Source: a virus (Duplodnaviria; Heunggongvirae; Uroviricota; Caudoviricetes). From it: a stretch of DNA of 16,353 nucleotides. The translations under genes were made by a program, and so were the position numbers. The stretch lies in the IMG/VR virus record IMGVR_UViG_2718218139_000006. One strand, 5' to 3'. Of the stretch, positions 2,411-8,562 are shown in pieces. How positions within the stretch are numbered: the stretch's first letter is position 1; every line of letters starts with the position of its first letter. The notes under the pieces were generated by a model. It did no database searches and was not told the origin of the DNA. It saw only the letters and a program-made list of their open reading frames with translations.

Positions 2411-2636
2411 CAGCGATTATCCGTTGGAGTTTTGGGTTTGCGTTGATTGGGAGTTGCGGTTCTGCAAGCGTTCCTACAAAACGGGAATTTCGGTCAATCA
2501 TCCAGTAGCGACCAACTTTTATAGCGGGTGGGGCCATCATTTTCCCTTGCGCGTATTTTTTCAGAACTCGCTCACTTGGTGCTAAGTCCCCAAATTCTTC
2601 TTTAGCCCAGTCCTGTAAAGTGATTAGTCGAGACAT
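2400..2636 (-). CDS. xis: Excisionase (lambda Xis-like winged-helix)
   Basis: 78 aa; MSRLITLQDWAKEE...MMAPPAIKVGRYWMID aligns to lambda Xis motifs (LTLQEW, IFPPPVKDGREYLF). The 3' end overlaps the int start by 11 nt, the classic xis-int arrangement. Confidence 0.75.
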   Translation of the reverse strand: MSRLITLQDWAKEEFGDLAPSERVLKKYAQGKMMAPPAIKVGRYWMIDRNSRFVGTLAEPQLPINANPKLQRIIADGC

Positions 2637-2775
2637 TTGTCCTCCTCTTAGCTGCTGAGGGAGTTTGTGACCGATATATCTGACATGATATTAAGCTTAT
2701 GGCAGGTACATCTCTTGACTGGTCATAGAGATAAATTTAATGCTGAGAAATGCAGTATTGAATTTATCAATTTTT

Positions 2776-3015
2776 CTATTTCCTGCGTATGGCACGTAAC
2801 TTCTTAATGTGTTCTGCCGTTTCGATCTCTTCTGCTATCCGATCTGCATCAGCTTTATTCACAGGTTCAAAGTCATGATTAAAGCGGAACATGCTGGCGA
2901 TACATGTTCTGCCTTTTCGGATGTAGTGAACTTTGTTGTGGGTAGAACGCAGGATTTTGCAGGGAGTGCCGTGGTGATCGACGTACCAGGTGTTAGGAAA
3001 AATGATTCTGAACAT
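2776..3015 (-). CDS. Hypothetical small protein (79 aa) in the early-left operon position
   Basis: ATG ORF with a good Shine-Dalgarno (GAGGTG, 4-nt spacer before the ATG at 3015), co-oriented with xis/int. No family recognised. Confidence 0.5.
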   Translation of the reverse strand: MFRIIFPNTWYVDHHGTPCKILRSTHNKVHYIRKGRTCIASMFRFNHDFEPVNKADADRIAEEIETAEHIKKLRAIRRK

Positions 3016-4512: not shown

Positions 4513-4818
4513 ATGCACGAAAAAGAGAGCCTTGCCGGAGCGTTCTGGCTCGTTTTGCTGATCATCGCAGGTTGGGGCGGTCTGGTCCGCTACCTGATAG
4601 ATGTGAAGCAGAGTAAAGCAACGTGGAGCTGGATAAATGCTTTGGCTCAGATAGTGGTGTCGGGATTCACCGGTGTTATTGGTGGCCTGATCAGTATCGA
4701 AAGTGGATTCAGTATTTACATGATTCTCGCGACAGCGGGGATTAGTGGTGCGATGGGTTCGGTTGCACTGACATACTTCTGGGAACGACTGACAGGGGTG
4801 AAAAATGCAAAATCTTAA
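4513..4818 (+). CDS. Holin (not lambda S-like), about 101 aa from ATG 4513; the ORF track begins at TTG 4501
   Basis: Small protein with several hydrophobic transmembrane-like segments and a charged C-terminus, directly upstream of and overlapping the endolysin gene. Confidence 0.7.
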   Translation: MHEKESLAGAFWLVLLIIAGWGGLVRYLIDVKQSKATWSWINALAQIVVSGFTGVIGGLISIESGFSIYMILATAGISGAMGSVALTYFWERLTGVKNAKS

Positions 4819-5281
4819 TCCTCAGCGTAAAGCTTTCCTCGATATGGTGGCATGGTCAGAAGGAACGGATAACGGACGGCAGAAAACCAGAAATCATGGT
4901 TATGACGTCATTGTAGGCGGAGAGCTATTTACTGATTACTCCGATCACCCTCGCAAACTTGTCACGCTAAACCCCAAACTCAAATCAACAGCAGCCGGAC
5001 GTTATCAGCTTCTTTCACGCTGGTGGGATGCTTACCGTAAGCAGCTTGGCCTGAAAGACTTCTCCCCCAAAAGCCAGGACGCAGTGGCATTGCAGCAGAT
5101 TAAAGAACGTGGCGCTTTACCGATGATTGATCGCGGTGATATTCGTCAGGCAATTGACCGTTGCAGCAATATCTGGGCTTCACTGCCGGGCGCTGGTTAT
5201 GGTCAGTTCGAGCATAAGGCTGACAGCCTGATTGCAAAATTCAAAGAAGCTGGCGGAACGGTCAGAGAGATTGAGGTATGA
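4805..5281 (+). CDS. R: Endolysin R (lytic transglycosylase), lambda R homolog
   Basis: 158 aa; from residue 8 (QRKAFLDM...) onward matches lambda R as I recall it, while the first 7 residues differ. Confidence 0.9.
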
Positions 5282-5739
5282 GCAGAGTAACCGCGATTAT
5301 CTCCGCTCTGGTTATTTGCATCATCGTCTGCCTGTCTTGGGCTGTTAATCATTACCGTGATAACGCCATTACCTACAAGGCCCAGCGCGACAAAAATGCC
5401 AGAGAACTGAAGCTGGCGAACGCGGCAATTACTGACATGCAGATGCGTCAGCGTGATGTTGCTGCGCTCGATGCAAAATACACGAAGGAGTTAGCTGATG
5501 CTAAAGCTGAAAATGATGCTCTGCGTGATGATGTTGCCGCTGGTCGTCGTCGGTTGCACATCAAAGCAGTCTGTCAGTCAGTGCGTGAAGCCACCACCGC
5601 CTCCGGCGTGGATAATGCAGCCTCCCCCCGACTGGCAGACACCGCTGAACGGGATTATTTCACCCTCAGAGAGAGGCTGATCACTATGCAAAAACAACTG
5701 GAAGGAACCCAGAAGTATATTAATGAGCAGTGCAGATAG
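5278..5739 (+). CDS. Rz: Spanin inner-membrane subunit Rz
   Basis: 153 aa, [58 protein letters not shown]..., matching lambda Rz. ATGA start/stop overlap with R. Confidence 0.9.
5498..5680 (+). CDS. Rz1: Spanin outer-membrane lipoprotein subunit Rz1, embedded in the +1 frame of Rz
   Basis: 60 aa, [24 protein letters not shown]... with a lipobox (VVGC) and a proline-rich stretch, matching lambda Rz1. Confidence 0.85.
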
Positions 5740-5740
5740 A

Positions 5741-5762
5741 GTTGCCCATATCGATGGGCAAC
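5741..5762. terminator. Candidate bidirectional terminator hairpin between convergent Rz and bor
   Basis: Perfect 9-bp stem GTTGCCCAT-atcg-ATGGGCAAC lying exactly between the Rz stop (5739) and the bor stop (5771). Confidence 0.5.
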
Positions 5763-5770
5763 TCATGCAA

Positions 5771-6064
5771 TTATTGTGAGCAATACACACGCGCTTCCAG
5801 CGGAGTATAAATGCCTAAAGTAATAAAACCGAGCAATCCATTTACGAATGTTTGCTGGGTTTCTGTTTTAACAACATTTTCTGCGCCGCCACAAATTTTG
5901 GCTGCATCGACAGTTTTCTTCTGCCCAATTCCAGAGACGAAGAAATGGTGGGTGATGGTTTCCTTTGGTGTTACTGCTGCCGGTTTGTTTTGAACAGTAA
6001 ACGTCTGTTGGGCACATCCTGTAATAAGCAGGGCCAGCGCAGTAGCGAGTAGCATTTTTTTCAT
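5771..6064 (-). CDS. bor: Bor lipoprotein (serum-resistance-associated lysogenic conversion protein)
   Basis: 97 aa, MKKMLLATALALLITGCAQQ... with signal peptide and lipobox (LITGC); matches lambda Bor. Confidence 0.9.
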   Translation of the reverse strand: MKKMLLATALALLITGCAQQTFTVQNKPAAVTPKETITHHFFVSGIGQKKTVDAAKICGGAENVVKTETQQTFVNGLLGFITLGIYTPLEARVYCSQ

Positions 6065-6208
6065 GGTGTTATTCCCGATGCTTTTTAAAGTTCGCAGAAT
6101 CGTATGTGTAGAAAATTAAACAAACCCTAAACAAACCCTAAACAATGAGTTGAAATCTCATATTGTTAATATTTATTAATGTATGTCAGATGCGAAGGAT
6201 CGTCACTG

Positions 6209-6274
6209 TATTCCCGGATTAACTATGTCCGCAGCCCTGACAGGGAAACTCCTCTGCGGGAGTGTCCGGGAATA
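6209..6274. repeat. Nested dyad-symmetry element in the bor-downstream intergenic region
   Basis: Perfect 10-bp inverted repeat TATTCCCGGA (6209-6218) / TCCGGGAATA (6265-6274) enclosing an inner inverted repeat CCGCAG (6229-6234) / CTGCGG (6254-6259) and a central CCCTG-a-CAGGG. Confidence 0.6.
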
Positions 6275-6366
6275 ATTAATAACGATGCACACAGGGTTTA
6301 GCGCGTACACGTATTGCATTATGCCAACGCCCCGGTGCTGACACGGAAGAAACCGGACGTTATGAT

Positions 6367-6900
6367 TTAGCGTGGAAAGATTTGTGTAGTGTTCTGAATG
6401 CTCTCAGTAAATAGTAATGAATTATCAAAGGCATAGTAATATCTTTTATGTTCGTGGATATTTGTAACCCATCGGAAAACTCCTGCTTTAGCAAGATTTT
6501 CCCTGTATTGCTGAAATGTGATTTCTCTTGATTTCAACCTATCATAGGACGTTTCTATAAGATGCGTATTTCTTGAGAATTTAACATTTACAACCTTTTT
6601 AAGTCCTTTTATTAACACAGTGTTATCGTTTTCTAACACAATGTGAATATTATCTGTGGCTAGATAGTAAATATAATGTGAGACATTGTGACGTTTTAGT
6701 TCAGAATAAAACAATTCACAGTTTAAATCTTTTCGCACTTGATCGAATATTTCTTTAAAAATGGCAACCTGAGCCATTGGTAAAACCTTCCATGTGATAC
6801 GAGGGCGCGTAGTTTGCATTATCGTTTTTATTGTTTCAATCTGGTCTGACCTCTTTGTGTTTTGTTGATGATTTATGTCAAATATTAGGAATGTTTTCAA
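6367..6900 (-). CDS. Conserved lambdoid late-region hypothetical protein (at the position of the lambda ORF downstream of bor)
   Basis: 177-aa ORF co-oriented with bor. Its position relative to Rz/bor/cos matches an unnamed lambda ORF. Confidence 0.55.
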
Positions 6901-7628: not shown

Positions 7629-7827
7629 GAGGTTGCCCCGTATTCAGTGTCGCTGATTTGTATTGTCTGAAGTTGTTTTTACGTTAAGTTGATGCGGATC
7701 AATTAATACGATACCTGCGTCATAATTGATTATTTGACGTGGTTTGATGGCGTAGATGCACGTTGTGACATGTAGATGATAATTATTATCATTTTGCGGG
7801 TCCTTTCCGGCGATCCGACAGGTTACG

Positions 7828-7839
7828 GGGCGGCGACCT
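7828..7839. other. cosN: the 12-nt lambda cohesive-end sequence GGGCGGCGACCT (terminase nicking site)
   Basis: Exact 12-mer, preceded by lambda right-end sequence (...TCCGACAGGTTACG) and followed by lambda left-end sequence (CGCGGGTTTTCGCTATTTATGAAAATTTTCCGG). Confidence 0.9.
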
Positions 7840-7875: not shown

Positions 7876-7993
7876 AAGGTGTTTCCGTTCTTCTTCGTCG
7901 TAACTTAATGTTTTTATTTAAAATACCCCCTAAAAAGAAAGGAAACGACAGGTGCTGAAAGCGAGCTTTTTGGCCTCTGTCGTTTCCTTTCTC
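7876..7993 (+). promoter_or_regulatory. cosB: terminase small-subunit binding sites R3, R2, R1 with an intervening AT-rich IHF-type site (I1)
   Basis: Three copies of the CGTTTCC core: R3 about 7880-7895, R2 inverted about 7937-7952, R1 about 7975-7993, with an AT-rich segment at 7898-7927. Lies between cosN and nu1 as in lambda. Confidence 0.8.
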
Positions 7994-8016: not shown

Positions 8017-8536
8017 ATGGAAGTCAACAAAAAGCAGCTGGCTGACATTTTCGGTTCGAGTATCCGTACCATTCAGAACTGGCAGGAACAGGGAATGCCC
8101 GTTCTGCGAGGCGGTGGCAAGGGTAATGAGGTGCTTTATGACTCTGCCGCCGTCATAAAATGGTATGCCGAAAGGGATGCTGAAATTGAGAACGAAAAGC
8201 TGCGCCGGGAGGTTGAAGAACTGCGGCAGGCCAGCGAGACAGATCTCCAGCCAGGGACTATTGAGTACGAACGCCATCGACTTACGCGTGCGCAGGCCGA
8301 CGCACAGGAGCTGAAAAATGCCAGAGACTCCGCTGAAGTGGTGGAAACCGCATTCTGTACTTTCGTGCTGTCGCGGATCGCAGGTGAAATTGCCAGTATT
8401 CTCGACGGGATCCCCCTGTCGGTGCAGCGGCGTTTTCCGGAACTGGAAAACCGACATGTTGATTTCCTGAAACGGGATATCATCAAAGCCATGAACAAAG
8501 CAGCCGCGCTGGATGAACTGATACCGGGGTTGCTGA

Positions 8537-8562
<26 letters not shown>
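8017..8562 (+). CDS. nu1: Terminase small subunit Nu1
   Basis: 181 aa, MEVNKKQLADIFGSSIRTIQNWQEQGMPVLRGGGKGNEVLYD..., matching lambda Nu1 (N-terminal winged HTH). Confidence 0.95.

Follow-up and report, generated by a model that had tools for sequence, protein, structure and literature searches.

The gap between bor and a lambdap78-like gene in IMGVR_UViG_2718218139_000006, a 16,353-nucleotide (nt) stretch of viral DNA (Caudoviricetes) that was analysed at its full length and is called the window below, contains what seems, from sequence comparison, to be a structured RNA motif not described before and carried by lambdoid phages of enterobacteria, lambda itself included. The window is a lambda-like phage segment that crosses cos, and an initial annotation of it had singled out a nested palindrome at 6209–6274, offering a structured RNA, a protein-binding operator and a recombination site as possible explanations. 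The palindrome proved to be one stem (P2) of a larger conserved unit, which occupies 6190–6357 and takes up most of the 302-bp gap except the part holding the bor promoter; it is one of about nine helices in a unit of 170–185 nt, and the real feature is thus considerably larger than the palindrome.

Conservation of the unit

The 10-bp arms TATTCCCGGA (6209–6218) and TCCGGGAATA (6265–6274) are, exactly as annotated, perfect reverse complements 46 nt apart, and they enclose the nested dyads CCGCAG (6229–6234)/CTGCGG (6254–6259) and CCCTG-a-CAGGG (6235–6245). The assertion that such a repeat is unlikely by chance stands only in part. For the window as a whole it fails, with 1.07 perfect 10-nt inverted repeats (gap 3–60 nt) expected per shuffled 16.4-kb window and at least one present in 53% of the shuffled windows; per shuffled 302-nt gap the expectation is 0.021. 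The palindrome is significant because it is conserved and covarying, as described below, and not by virtue of the raw repeat statistic. Fold prediction on both strands of the 66-nt segment, proposed as a check, gave structures more stable than those of dinucleotide shuffles (z = −4.4 on the plus strand and −3.3 on the minus strand).

The equivalent lambda interval, when compared as had been suggested, was found to contain the same 10-bp repeat (46,886–46,895 and 46,941–46,950) within a copy of the unit at 46,866–47,032, and the copy in Escherichia coli K-12 lies at about 579,007–579,178, in the borD–ybcV gap of the prophage DLP12; the region carries no annotation in NC_001416, J02459 or NC_000913. 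A blastn search of the gap against 50,697 phage records yielded 371 matching records, 34 of which match the whole gap, while several hundred match only a core of ~110–180 nt at 72–82% identity with unrelated flanks, including Stx1, Stx2, ES18 and SPN3UB phages. Non-conservation among related phages had been named as grounds for dismissing the element, and the outcome was the opposite: the region is kept in several hundred lambdoid records despite unrelated flanks. The phage BLAST matches are confined to phages of Escherichia, Shigella and Salmonella, and full-length matches to the profile (nhmmer) and covariance models (CM) were obtained in >200 loci. In the alignments the borders are sharp, conservation beginning at (A/G)TGCG and stopping at GAAGAAACCGGA, with flanks that differ among phage groups. 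The ES18 version aligns over 86–94% of its own length in E. coli phages; since ES18 packages by the headful (pac) mechanism and carries the unit after rha, the unit is not bound to a particular type of terminase or of lysis gene. With a 131-nt query covering the first domain, related sequence was found in 4,561 of 5,426 complete E. coli genomes (84%), at a median of 2 and up to 10 places per genome, as well as at 691 plasmid places, where a fragment lies with iss, the ColV-plasmid homologue of bor. Among 63 contigs with a lambda-type Nu1, 50 carry the unit with unchanged synteny and orientation; when Nu1-type loci lacking a BLAST-level copy were searched with a covariance model, no divergent full copy was found, only a remnant of the 3′ hairpin.

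Truncated copies were seen in loci L042 and L087, in the L284 type and in ColV plasmids. In L284 (1700–2905) and seven similar loci, a cspA-like cold-shock gene and an AT-rich segment stand in place of most of the element, and just the 3′ hairpin UCCGG...CCGGA is left, beside a ybcV-like gene. On the ColV-type plasmid NZ_CP066841 (L008, 3227–4083), the serum-survival gene iss is accompanied by Rz/Rz1 pseudogene remnants and a truncated element, with an IS3 transposase alongside; the ColV iss region is a fossil of a lambdoid late region. L016 holds two copies of the element (5054–5238 and 6004–6188), ~950 bp apart, on either side of an inserted plus-strand gene, and the hairpin GTGCGACCGTGGTCGCAC, present also in L042 and L037, is repeated at the borders of the insert, which suggests a small mobile or recombining cassette with the element as its landing zone. 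A loose gapped-pattern scan of genome contigs gave 120 loci, of which three (L188, L206 and L211) are genuine and the others chance matches. L211 holds a lambda-type copy without the first ~20 nt. L188 ('Pseudomonas sp. 30_B') and L206 ('Chromatiales bacterium MAG') bear one and the same lambda-type element, which has lambda's AATTAAAACGAT, and L188 additionally encodes lambda R, Rz, bor and p78; both look like assembly contamination by lambda control DNA.

Covariation and the folding strand

The main sample comprised 120 contigs of IMG/VR, collected with a pattern of conserved unpaired bases, together with annotated phage loci, and gave 79 distinct full-length sequences. In their alignment (A3), 96.9% of 3,638 cells are standard pairs, and 14 pairs have changed on both sides, in 86 cells. 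Of 500 shuffles, not one reached any of five pairing measures, and sliding the 3′ partners by 1–3 columns reduced pairing to 34–63%; the first domain, taken separately, is 98.5% paired. A second sample, collected with a covariance model from which the stem S1 was omitted, contained 41 distinct sequences, 20 of them new, and showed 97.6% pairing with 11 double-change pairs. S1 is 93.6–94.8% paired with three double-change pairs, which holds in the sample whose search model excludes it, and S2 is 96.5–97.0% paired across both samples with one to four such pairs. The stem order of an H-type pseudoknot (S1a-S2a-S1b-S2b), with both stems covarying, is accordingly present in most relatives and absent from the lambda-type copy of the window. 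The check by covariation across lambdoid phages, as first proposed, has therefore shown stems that are retained through compensatory changes.

The non-Watson–Crick cells are strongly asymmetric between the strands: read on the plus strand they comprise 383 G–U against 28 A–C, and pairing that amounts to 96.9% on this strand would be 87.2% on the other. Because G–U far outnumber A–C, the plus strand is taken to be the folding strand. With compensatory and G–U changes keeping the stems, and with an asymmetry that favours one strand, the structured RNA among the original candidates is supported, whereas a strand-asymmetric, pairing-preserving pattern does not suit a duplex operator. The recombination site found no such support, since it leaves the covariation unexplained; recombination could be a side effect, because mosaic joints occur at both borders.

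A duplex-DNA operator or cruciform was rejected on the same grounds, namely that the arms vary while their complementarity stays and that the G–U excess is strand-specific. An operator for a dimeric protein, or alternatively a gene for a small protein, might be read from the perfect dyad in the window and from the open reading frames (ORFs) annotated over the element in PhiR49_1 and Stx2 phages, but the arms are 46 bp apart, the changes preserve complementarity rather than sequence, no frame is open in all variant classes and no Pfam match was obtained, so that either function is improbable in the extreme. Hardly more credible is a role on the minus strand, as terminator or 3′ untranslated region of the convergent p78/ybcV or as an upstream regulatory region of bor. 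It is true that the unit of the window sits between the stop codon of the p78-like gene (6367–6369) and the bor promoter, that the minus strand folds well (z = −3.3 to −4.1; whole unit −2.55) and that weak terminator-like sites lie on it at 6310–6285. However, many phages, such as VT1-Sakai, have no minus-strand gene on either side, the wobbles become A–C mismatches with the loss of pairing given above, and the bor promoter (PhoP boxes 6117–6144) lies between the element and bor; because of this last arrangement, bor mRNA would not contain the element.

The possibility that the unit is a functionless 'linker', shared among phages because it is kept as a recombination crossover between the lysis and packaging modules and folding only incidentally, draws on the mosaic joints exactly at both borders, on the two copies around an inserted gene in L016, on the truncated copies (L042, L087, the L284 type and ColV plasmids) and on the finding that about one lambda-type contig in five has no unit. 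We regard it as decidedly unlikely, given that a neutral sequence would not hold 97% pairing through 14 double changes or a 383:28 G–U bias; the single orientation in 120 of 120 loci would also be unexpected, though synteny alone could account for it.

Structure of the unit

The unit consists of a long hairpin (P1–P4), a variable middle hairpin and a 3′ H-type pseudoknot that is degenerate in the lambda-type copy; the coordinates of its parts in the window are compiled in Table 1. P1 (7 bp) and P2 (11 bp) flank an internal loop of 5 × 7 nt, with P3/P4 stacked beyond. In P1 (helix 1), 98.7% of cells are paired, with UG/UA/CG at alignment columns 19–108 and GC/AU at columns 18–109, and the window has one G–G mismatch (6198/6287) at a pair that is U–G, U–A or C–G in most relatives. 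P2 (helix 2) is 98.3% paired, three of its pairs having changed on both sides (UA/UG/CG; CG/UA/AU; CG/GC/UG). Within the P2–P3 internal loop, A6222 and C6223 pair with G6262 and U6263, and the proposed helices include a P2b of 2 bp. P3 (helix 3) is 98.5% paired, columns 53–77 being C–G in 41 and U–G in 36 sequences, and gains a sixth pair (C6229–G6259) in the window. The tip hairpin P4 varies in length and is deleted in one group of Stx2 phages (rows L006 and L058).

In the middle domain, most relatives have GGG...CCC (P5) around a group-specific hairpin P6, variously CCGCG/CGCGG, CAGC/GCUG, CUGUG/CGCAG or CGCGU/ACGCG, whereas the lambda-type copy of the window has this domain replaced or degenerate. 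At the 3′ end of most relatives, S1 (GUCGC/GCGAU) and S2 (UCCGGU/ACCGGA) form the H-type pseudoknot, with the A-rich GGUGGAAGAA as loop 3. S2 (helix 9) is 97.0% paired in the main sample, with four double-change pairs that include GC/UA/GU at columns 173–195, and in ES18 this stem is completely rewritten. S1 (helix 8) is mispaired in the window copy, and its unpaired cells are those of the lambda-type rows. Strictly conserved unpaired bases are AUUAAC, GAGUGU, AUAAUCAAAAACGAU and GAAGAA, the invariance of GAGUGU being partly by construction since GAGTGT was in the collecting pattern. Conservation so strict goes beyond the needs of a stable hairpin and implies that a protein or a tertiary fold recognises the sequence specifically.

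Table 1. Coordinates of the conserved unit and of neighbouring features in the window.
Feature	Position	Strand	Remarks
Whole conserved unit	6190–6357	+	alignments, nhmmer/CM
P1 5′ arm, GGATCGT	6197–6203	+	pairs with 6282–6288
P2 5′ arm, TATTCCCGGA + U6219	6209–6219	+	U6219 wobble with G6264
ATTAAC, 5′ side of P2–P3 internal loop	6218–6223	+	nearly invariant (columns invariant or ≥90%)
P3 5′ arm, CGCAG	6230–6234	+	pairs with 6254–6258
P4 tip hairpin, CCCU-GAC-AGGG	6235–6245	+	fold, alignments
P3 3′ arm, CUGCG	6254–6258	+	
GAGUGU, 3′ side of P2–P3 internal loop	6260–6265	+	invariant in 79/79 sequences
P2 3′ arm, G + TCCGGGAATA	6264–6274	+	
AUUAAUA, unpaired 3′ side of asymmetric P2–P1 internal loop	6275–6281	+	conserved; AUCAAAA in most relatives
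P1 3′ arm, ACGAUGC	6282–6288	+	
Linker ACACA and middle domain	6289–6331	+	
Terminal hairpin S2	6332–6356	+	CCGGU 6332–6336, 15-nt loop GCUGACACGGAAGAA, ACCGG 6352–6356
R	4805–5281	+	
Rz	5278–5739	+	
bor	5771–6064	−	
Gap between bor and lambdap78-like gene			302 bp
lambdap78-like gene	6367–6900	−	stop codon 6367–6369
cosQ	7798–7804		GGGTCCT
cosN	7828–7839		GGGCGGCGACCT
Nu1	8017–8562		

Position in the late operon

Across the 120 viral loci, all 463 lysis-gene matches lie upstream of the unit and all 139 terminase matches downstream of it, both on the same strand as the unit, while bor (24 matches) lies upstream and p78 and ybcV (23 matches each) lie downstream on the opposite strand. Counted from where the unit ends, terS starts 222–2,281 nt further on. 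In the most compact arrangements this spacing is 222–248 nt, the unit ending ~25–60 nt before cosQ/cosN; in lambda and the window, 1.4 kb of accessory genes is inserted between the unit and cosQ. In VT1-Sakai the order is Rz, element, terS. The plus strand is the sense strand of the late operon, and the unit is, to judge from this gene order, transcribed within the Q-dependent late polycistronic transcript, in an untranslated stretch after the lysis cassette and before cos and the terminase genes. In K-12, plus-strand RNA reads through the DLP12 copy to a Rho-dependent 3′ end at 579,345, ~170 nt beyond, and no 3′ end is listed within 579,007–579,178 (PMC7815308 supplement). Promoter scans found no convincing or conserved plus-strand promoter inside or just upstream of the unit, and a shared promoter can be discounted because conservation starts abruptly and the upstream flanks are unrelated.

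The plus strand might instead fold as single-stranded DNA (ssDNA) and serve as a lagging-strand priming or recombination signal in rolling-circle replication, or as a signal near cos. No DNA mismatch is more stable than G–T, which means that RNA and ssDNA cannot be told apart by the strand asymmetry alone, and the closeness of the unit to cosQ/cosN in the most compact arrangements would suit a DNA signal. We nevertheless consider such a signal very improbable: the same element occurs in the headful phage ES18, it lies 1.4 kb from cosQ in lambda and the window (cos fragments of about 200 bp suffice for packaging), pseudoknots of covarying stems are not known among DNA priming signals, and the plus strand is the sense of an abundant transcript, which is the simpler reading.

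Comparison with known RNAs, genes and repeats

In searches of Rfam 15, the window at the gathering threshold gave only IS009 (described below), the local region at E-values up to 10 gave only a chance miRNA match outside the element, and the VT1-Sakai copy, again at E-values up to 10, gave only sub-threshold chance matches downstream of it; ARAGORN detected no tRNA or tmRNA. An intrinsic terminator was rejected, as no terminator-like site was found on the plus strand in the window between 5700 and 6500 or in L002 between 2500 and 3500; the sequence after the stems is AUUAAUA following P2, CGUUAUG following S2 and, in relatives, 2–4 U following P6.

Individual sequences do contain long open frames, but across the variant classes every frame is interrupted by stops (such as the TGA created by a T in alignment column 80) or shifted by 1-nt insertions or deletions, and a coding function was rejected; ORFs over the element have no Pfam match. 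In the candidate minus-strand frame, variability is not concentrated at third positions, and the fitting plus-strand frame holds an invariant internal stop. PHROG 6954 ('Rz-like spanin') corresponds to an 81-aa plus-strand ORF called over the block in Stx2 phages, and only the Stx2-phage ORF matches this family at full length; a 53-aa minus-strand ORF has been called over the element in PhiR49_1. Database ORF calls over the element, as 'Rz-like spanin' (PHROG 6954) or 'hypothetical protein', are found at 2608–2853 (plus strand) of L003 and 2468–2629 (minus strand) of L004. The PHROG 'Rz-like spanin' and the several 'hypothetical proteins' called over the block are, judging by the alignments, probably spurious annotation artefacts.

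A dispersed repeat of the REP/ERIC/MITE kind was likewise rejected, position and orientation being shared by 120 of 120 viral loci and 50 of 63 Nu1-anchored loci. The unit does resemble these repeats in being an imperfect palindrome in transcribed intergenic DNA with several copies per E. coli genome, and repeats of this kind can stabilise upstream mRNA. In clear contrast to them, every copy examined stands at the same place of a lambdoid late operon rather than dispersed, and a median of 2 copies, with a maximum of 10, is roughly what the presumed number of prophages would lead one to expect.

An Hfq-dependent small RNA (sRNA) gene was also rejected, the upstream flanks being unrelated, a U-tail terminator missing and no Hfq peak being found: the Hfq cross-linking table of enterohaemorrhagic E. 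coli (EHEC), obtained with uninduced cultures, lists none in the Sp5 late region 1,268,542–1,292,386 (PMC4104026 supplement). The prophage sRNAs AgvB/AsxR (anti-sRNAs), StxS and PasA–D are similarly lambdoid, occupy conserved late-region positions and occur in several copies per genome. They are located near PR′/Q, stx or the holin, bind Hfq and possess a promoter or terminator of their own, whereas the unit follows Rz/bor, has neither promoter nor terminator and is absent from the Sp5 Hfq peak list. No description of the element is contained in the searched passages or tables of the EHEC Hfq-CRAC sRNA study, the Pas sRNA preprint, the Salmonella prophage transcriptome, and the papers on StxS and on N15 cos. 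A further comparison is with the orphan phage or prophage RNAs of Rfam (such as c4 antisense RNA, Mu-gpT-DE, IS009 and STnc100), which are likewise conserved, covarying non-coding prophage blocks of obscure role; the unit differs in matching no Rfam 15 model and in being embedded in sense orientation in a late operon, with no separate gene of its own.

Neighbouring features

The gap also holds the annotated 11-bp tandem repeat, two copies of TAAACAAACCC at 6117–6138. Regulation of borD by PhoP is said to have been reported by Minagawa and colleagues in 2003. Located 53 nt ahead of the bor start codon, 6144→6117 has the minus-strand sequence TGTTTA-GGGTT-TGTTTA-GGGTT-TGTTTA, and the PhoP box is a direct repeat of the form (T/G)GTTTA-N5-(T/G)GTTTA (PMC5775216). 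The tandem repeat is thus, by its sequence, a triple PhoP box for bor and separate from the palindrome; lambda has two of the hexamers and the window three, so that the window phage has one extra 11-bp unit. At 6069–6077, overlapping the ribosome-binding region of bor, TTATTCCCG is complementary to the P2 3′ arm (6267–6275). In a minus-strand read-through RNA the element could pair with the bor ribosome-binding site, a match possibly due to chance (~0.2 expected in 302 nt).

Two further perfect inverted repeats of the kind counted above occur in the window. One, at 5739–5764 between the converging ends of Rz and bor, is an 11-nt repeat (AGTTGCCCAT-ATCG-ATGGGCAACT) and neither strand has a U-run there; for the bor strand of K-12, Term-seq places the 3′ end further along, within rzpD (578,444). 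The other, a 16-nt repeat at 7936–7992, corresponds to the terminase-binding sites R2/R1 of cosB. The IS009 match (RF02111; 16115–16313, plus strand) is full-length and scores 227.9 bits against a gathering score of 117; a 2026 preprint places IS009 among structured RNAs located near the prophage sRNA PasB.

Discussion

We tentatively favour the view that the unit acts in cis on the late mRNA and determines its processing or stability at the lysis/packaging boundary. By analogy to a punctuation mark, it would divide the late message by processing and stability: the interrupted P1–P2–P3 helix, with its two segments and asymmetric internal loop, would be the target of a double-strand-specific endonuclease or, alternatively, the long helix and the 3′ pseudoknot would block 3′ exonucleases. 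By either route, the lysis genes would have a message whose decay and dosage are independent of those of the message for packaging and head genes. The shape expected of a ribonuclease III (RNase III) site, about two turns of double-stranded RNA with an internal loop, is present, although this is a weak criterion. The same irregular two-segment hairpin with an asymmetric internal loop is seen in the intergenic RNase III sites of T7 (e.g., R1.1) and in lambda sib and the N leader, which likewise sit at a module boundary, within an untranslated spacer of a long polycistronic phage message; once such sites are cut, the hairpin left at the 3′ end stabilises the message upstream. Daniels and colleagues reportedly described RNase III sites in the lambda late transcript in 1988 (cited in PMC7547250). 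In contrast to the T7 and lambda sites, the unit, known here from its sequence, is much larger (P3/P4, middle hairpin and pseudoknot), and its loops are conserved beyond what RNase III needs.

Several observations weigh against such a cis-acting late-mRNA element. All sequences are from close enterobacterial phages (79–82% mean column identity), so that many events are shared by descent, and the covariation statistics make them look more independent than they are. The lambda-type copy of the window is without the middle hairpin and S1, its 3′ half being relaxed; 13 of the 63 contigs with a lambda-type Nu1 have no unit, 8 of them retaining the 3′ hairpin alone, and ColV plasmids retain a mere fragment next to iss. 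Some prophages can dispense with the element. Nothing is seen at the site in one RNase III data set from K-12 with the prophage uninduced. Finally, a plain stability element would not need loop sequences so strictly conserved.

This strictness, which argues for specific recognition, keeps three rivals in play: a trans-acting or protein-binding RNA, a new switch or ribozyme, and the ssDNA role considered above. A trans-acting or protein-binding non-coding RNA, processed from the late transcript or made from lysogen read-through, may titrate or guide a host or phage factor, or base-pair with a target by means of its conserved unpaired segments; we judge this unlikely, though a serious alternative. 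Candidates for the bound factor, each to be held just as loosely, would be an RNA-binding protein, a nuclease or a defence sensor. Invariant or near-invariant unpaired nucleotides are typical of recognition surfaces and seed regions, a multi-domain pseudoknot architecture exceeds the needs of a nuclease barrier, and the unit stays intact while both flanks are swapped; these features speak for such an RNA, and the lack of a conserved promoter and of a U-tailed terminator, as well as the missing Hfq peak in the late region of uninduced Sp5, against it.

A regulatory RNA switch or a self-cleaving ribozyme, either of them of a new class, seems quite improbable; in it the internal loops and the pseudoknot would build a pocket that depends on a ligand, a protein or a metal, and the late transcript would be controlled or cut before the packaging genes. 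Covarying stems around invariant junction nucleotides, together with an H-type pseudoknot with an A-rich loop 3, are the usual signature of riboswitches and ribozymes, and bacterial self-cleaving ribozymes often occur in prophages. Nonetheless, no Rfam match was obtained even at an E-value up to 10, no expression platform is recognisable, with P6 followed by only 2–4 U (Q-modified polymerase ignores terminators), and the lambda-type copy is without S1 and P6.

Going further than the tentatively preferred cis-acting element, the unit could represent a new functional RNA class, a fold of ~180 nt with an H-type pseudoknot that would serve as a cutting point, or as a sensor or decoy of a host factor, and would set the balance between lysis and virion production. 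We give this extension little credence; if it were true, the cutting point would be self-cleaving or factor-dependent, and the host factor engaged may be, for example, a defence system, a nuclease or an RNA chaperone.

Few genomes are annotated as well as that of lambda, yet its block at 46,866–47,032 is unannotated, and related sequence is present in Stx1 and Stx2 toxin-converting phages; the PHROG and hypothetical-protein ORF calls made over it merit review. Control of late-transcript processing or stability by the unit, if real, would help to explain how very unequal amounts of lysis and structural proteins are made from one 26-kb mRNA, and in Shiga-toxin phages the unit would then offer a handle on lysis timing and toxin release.

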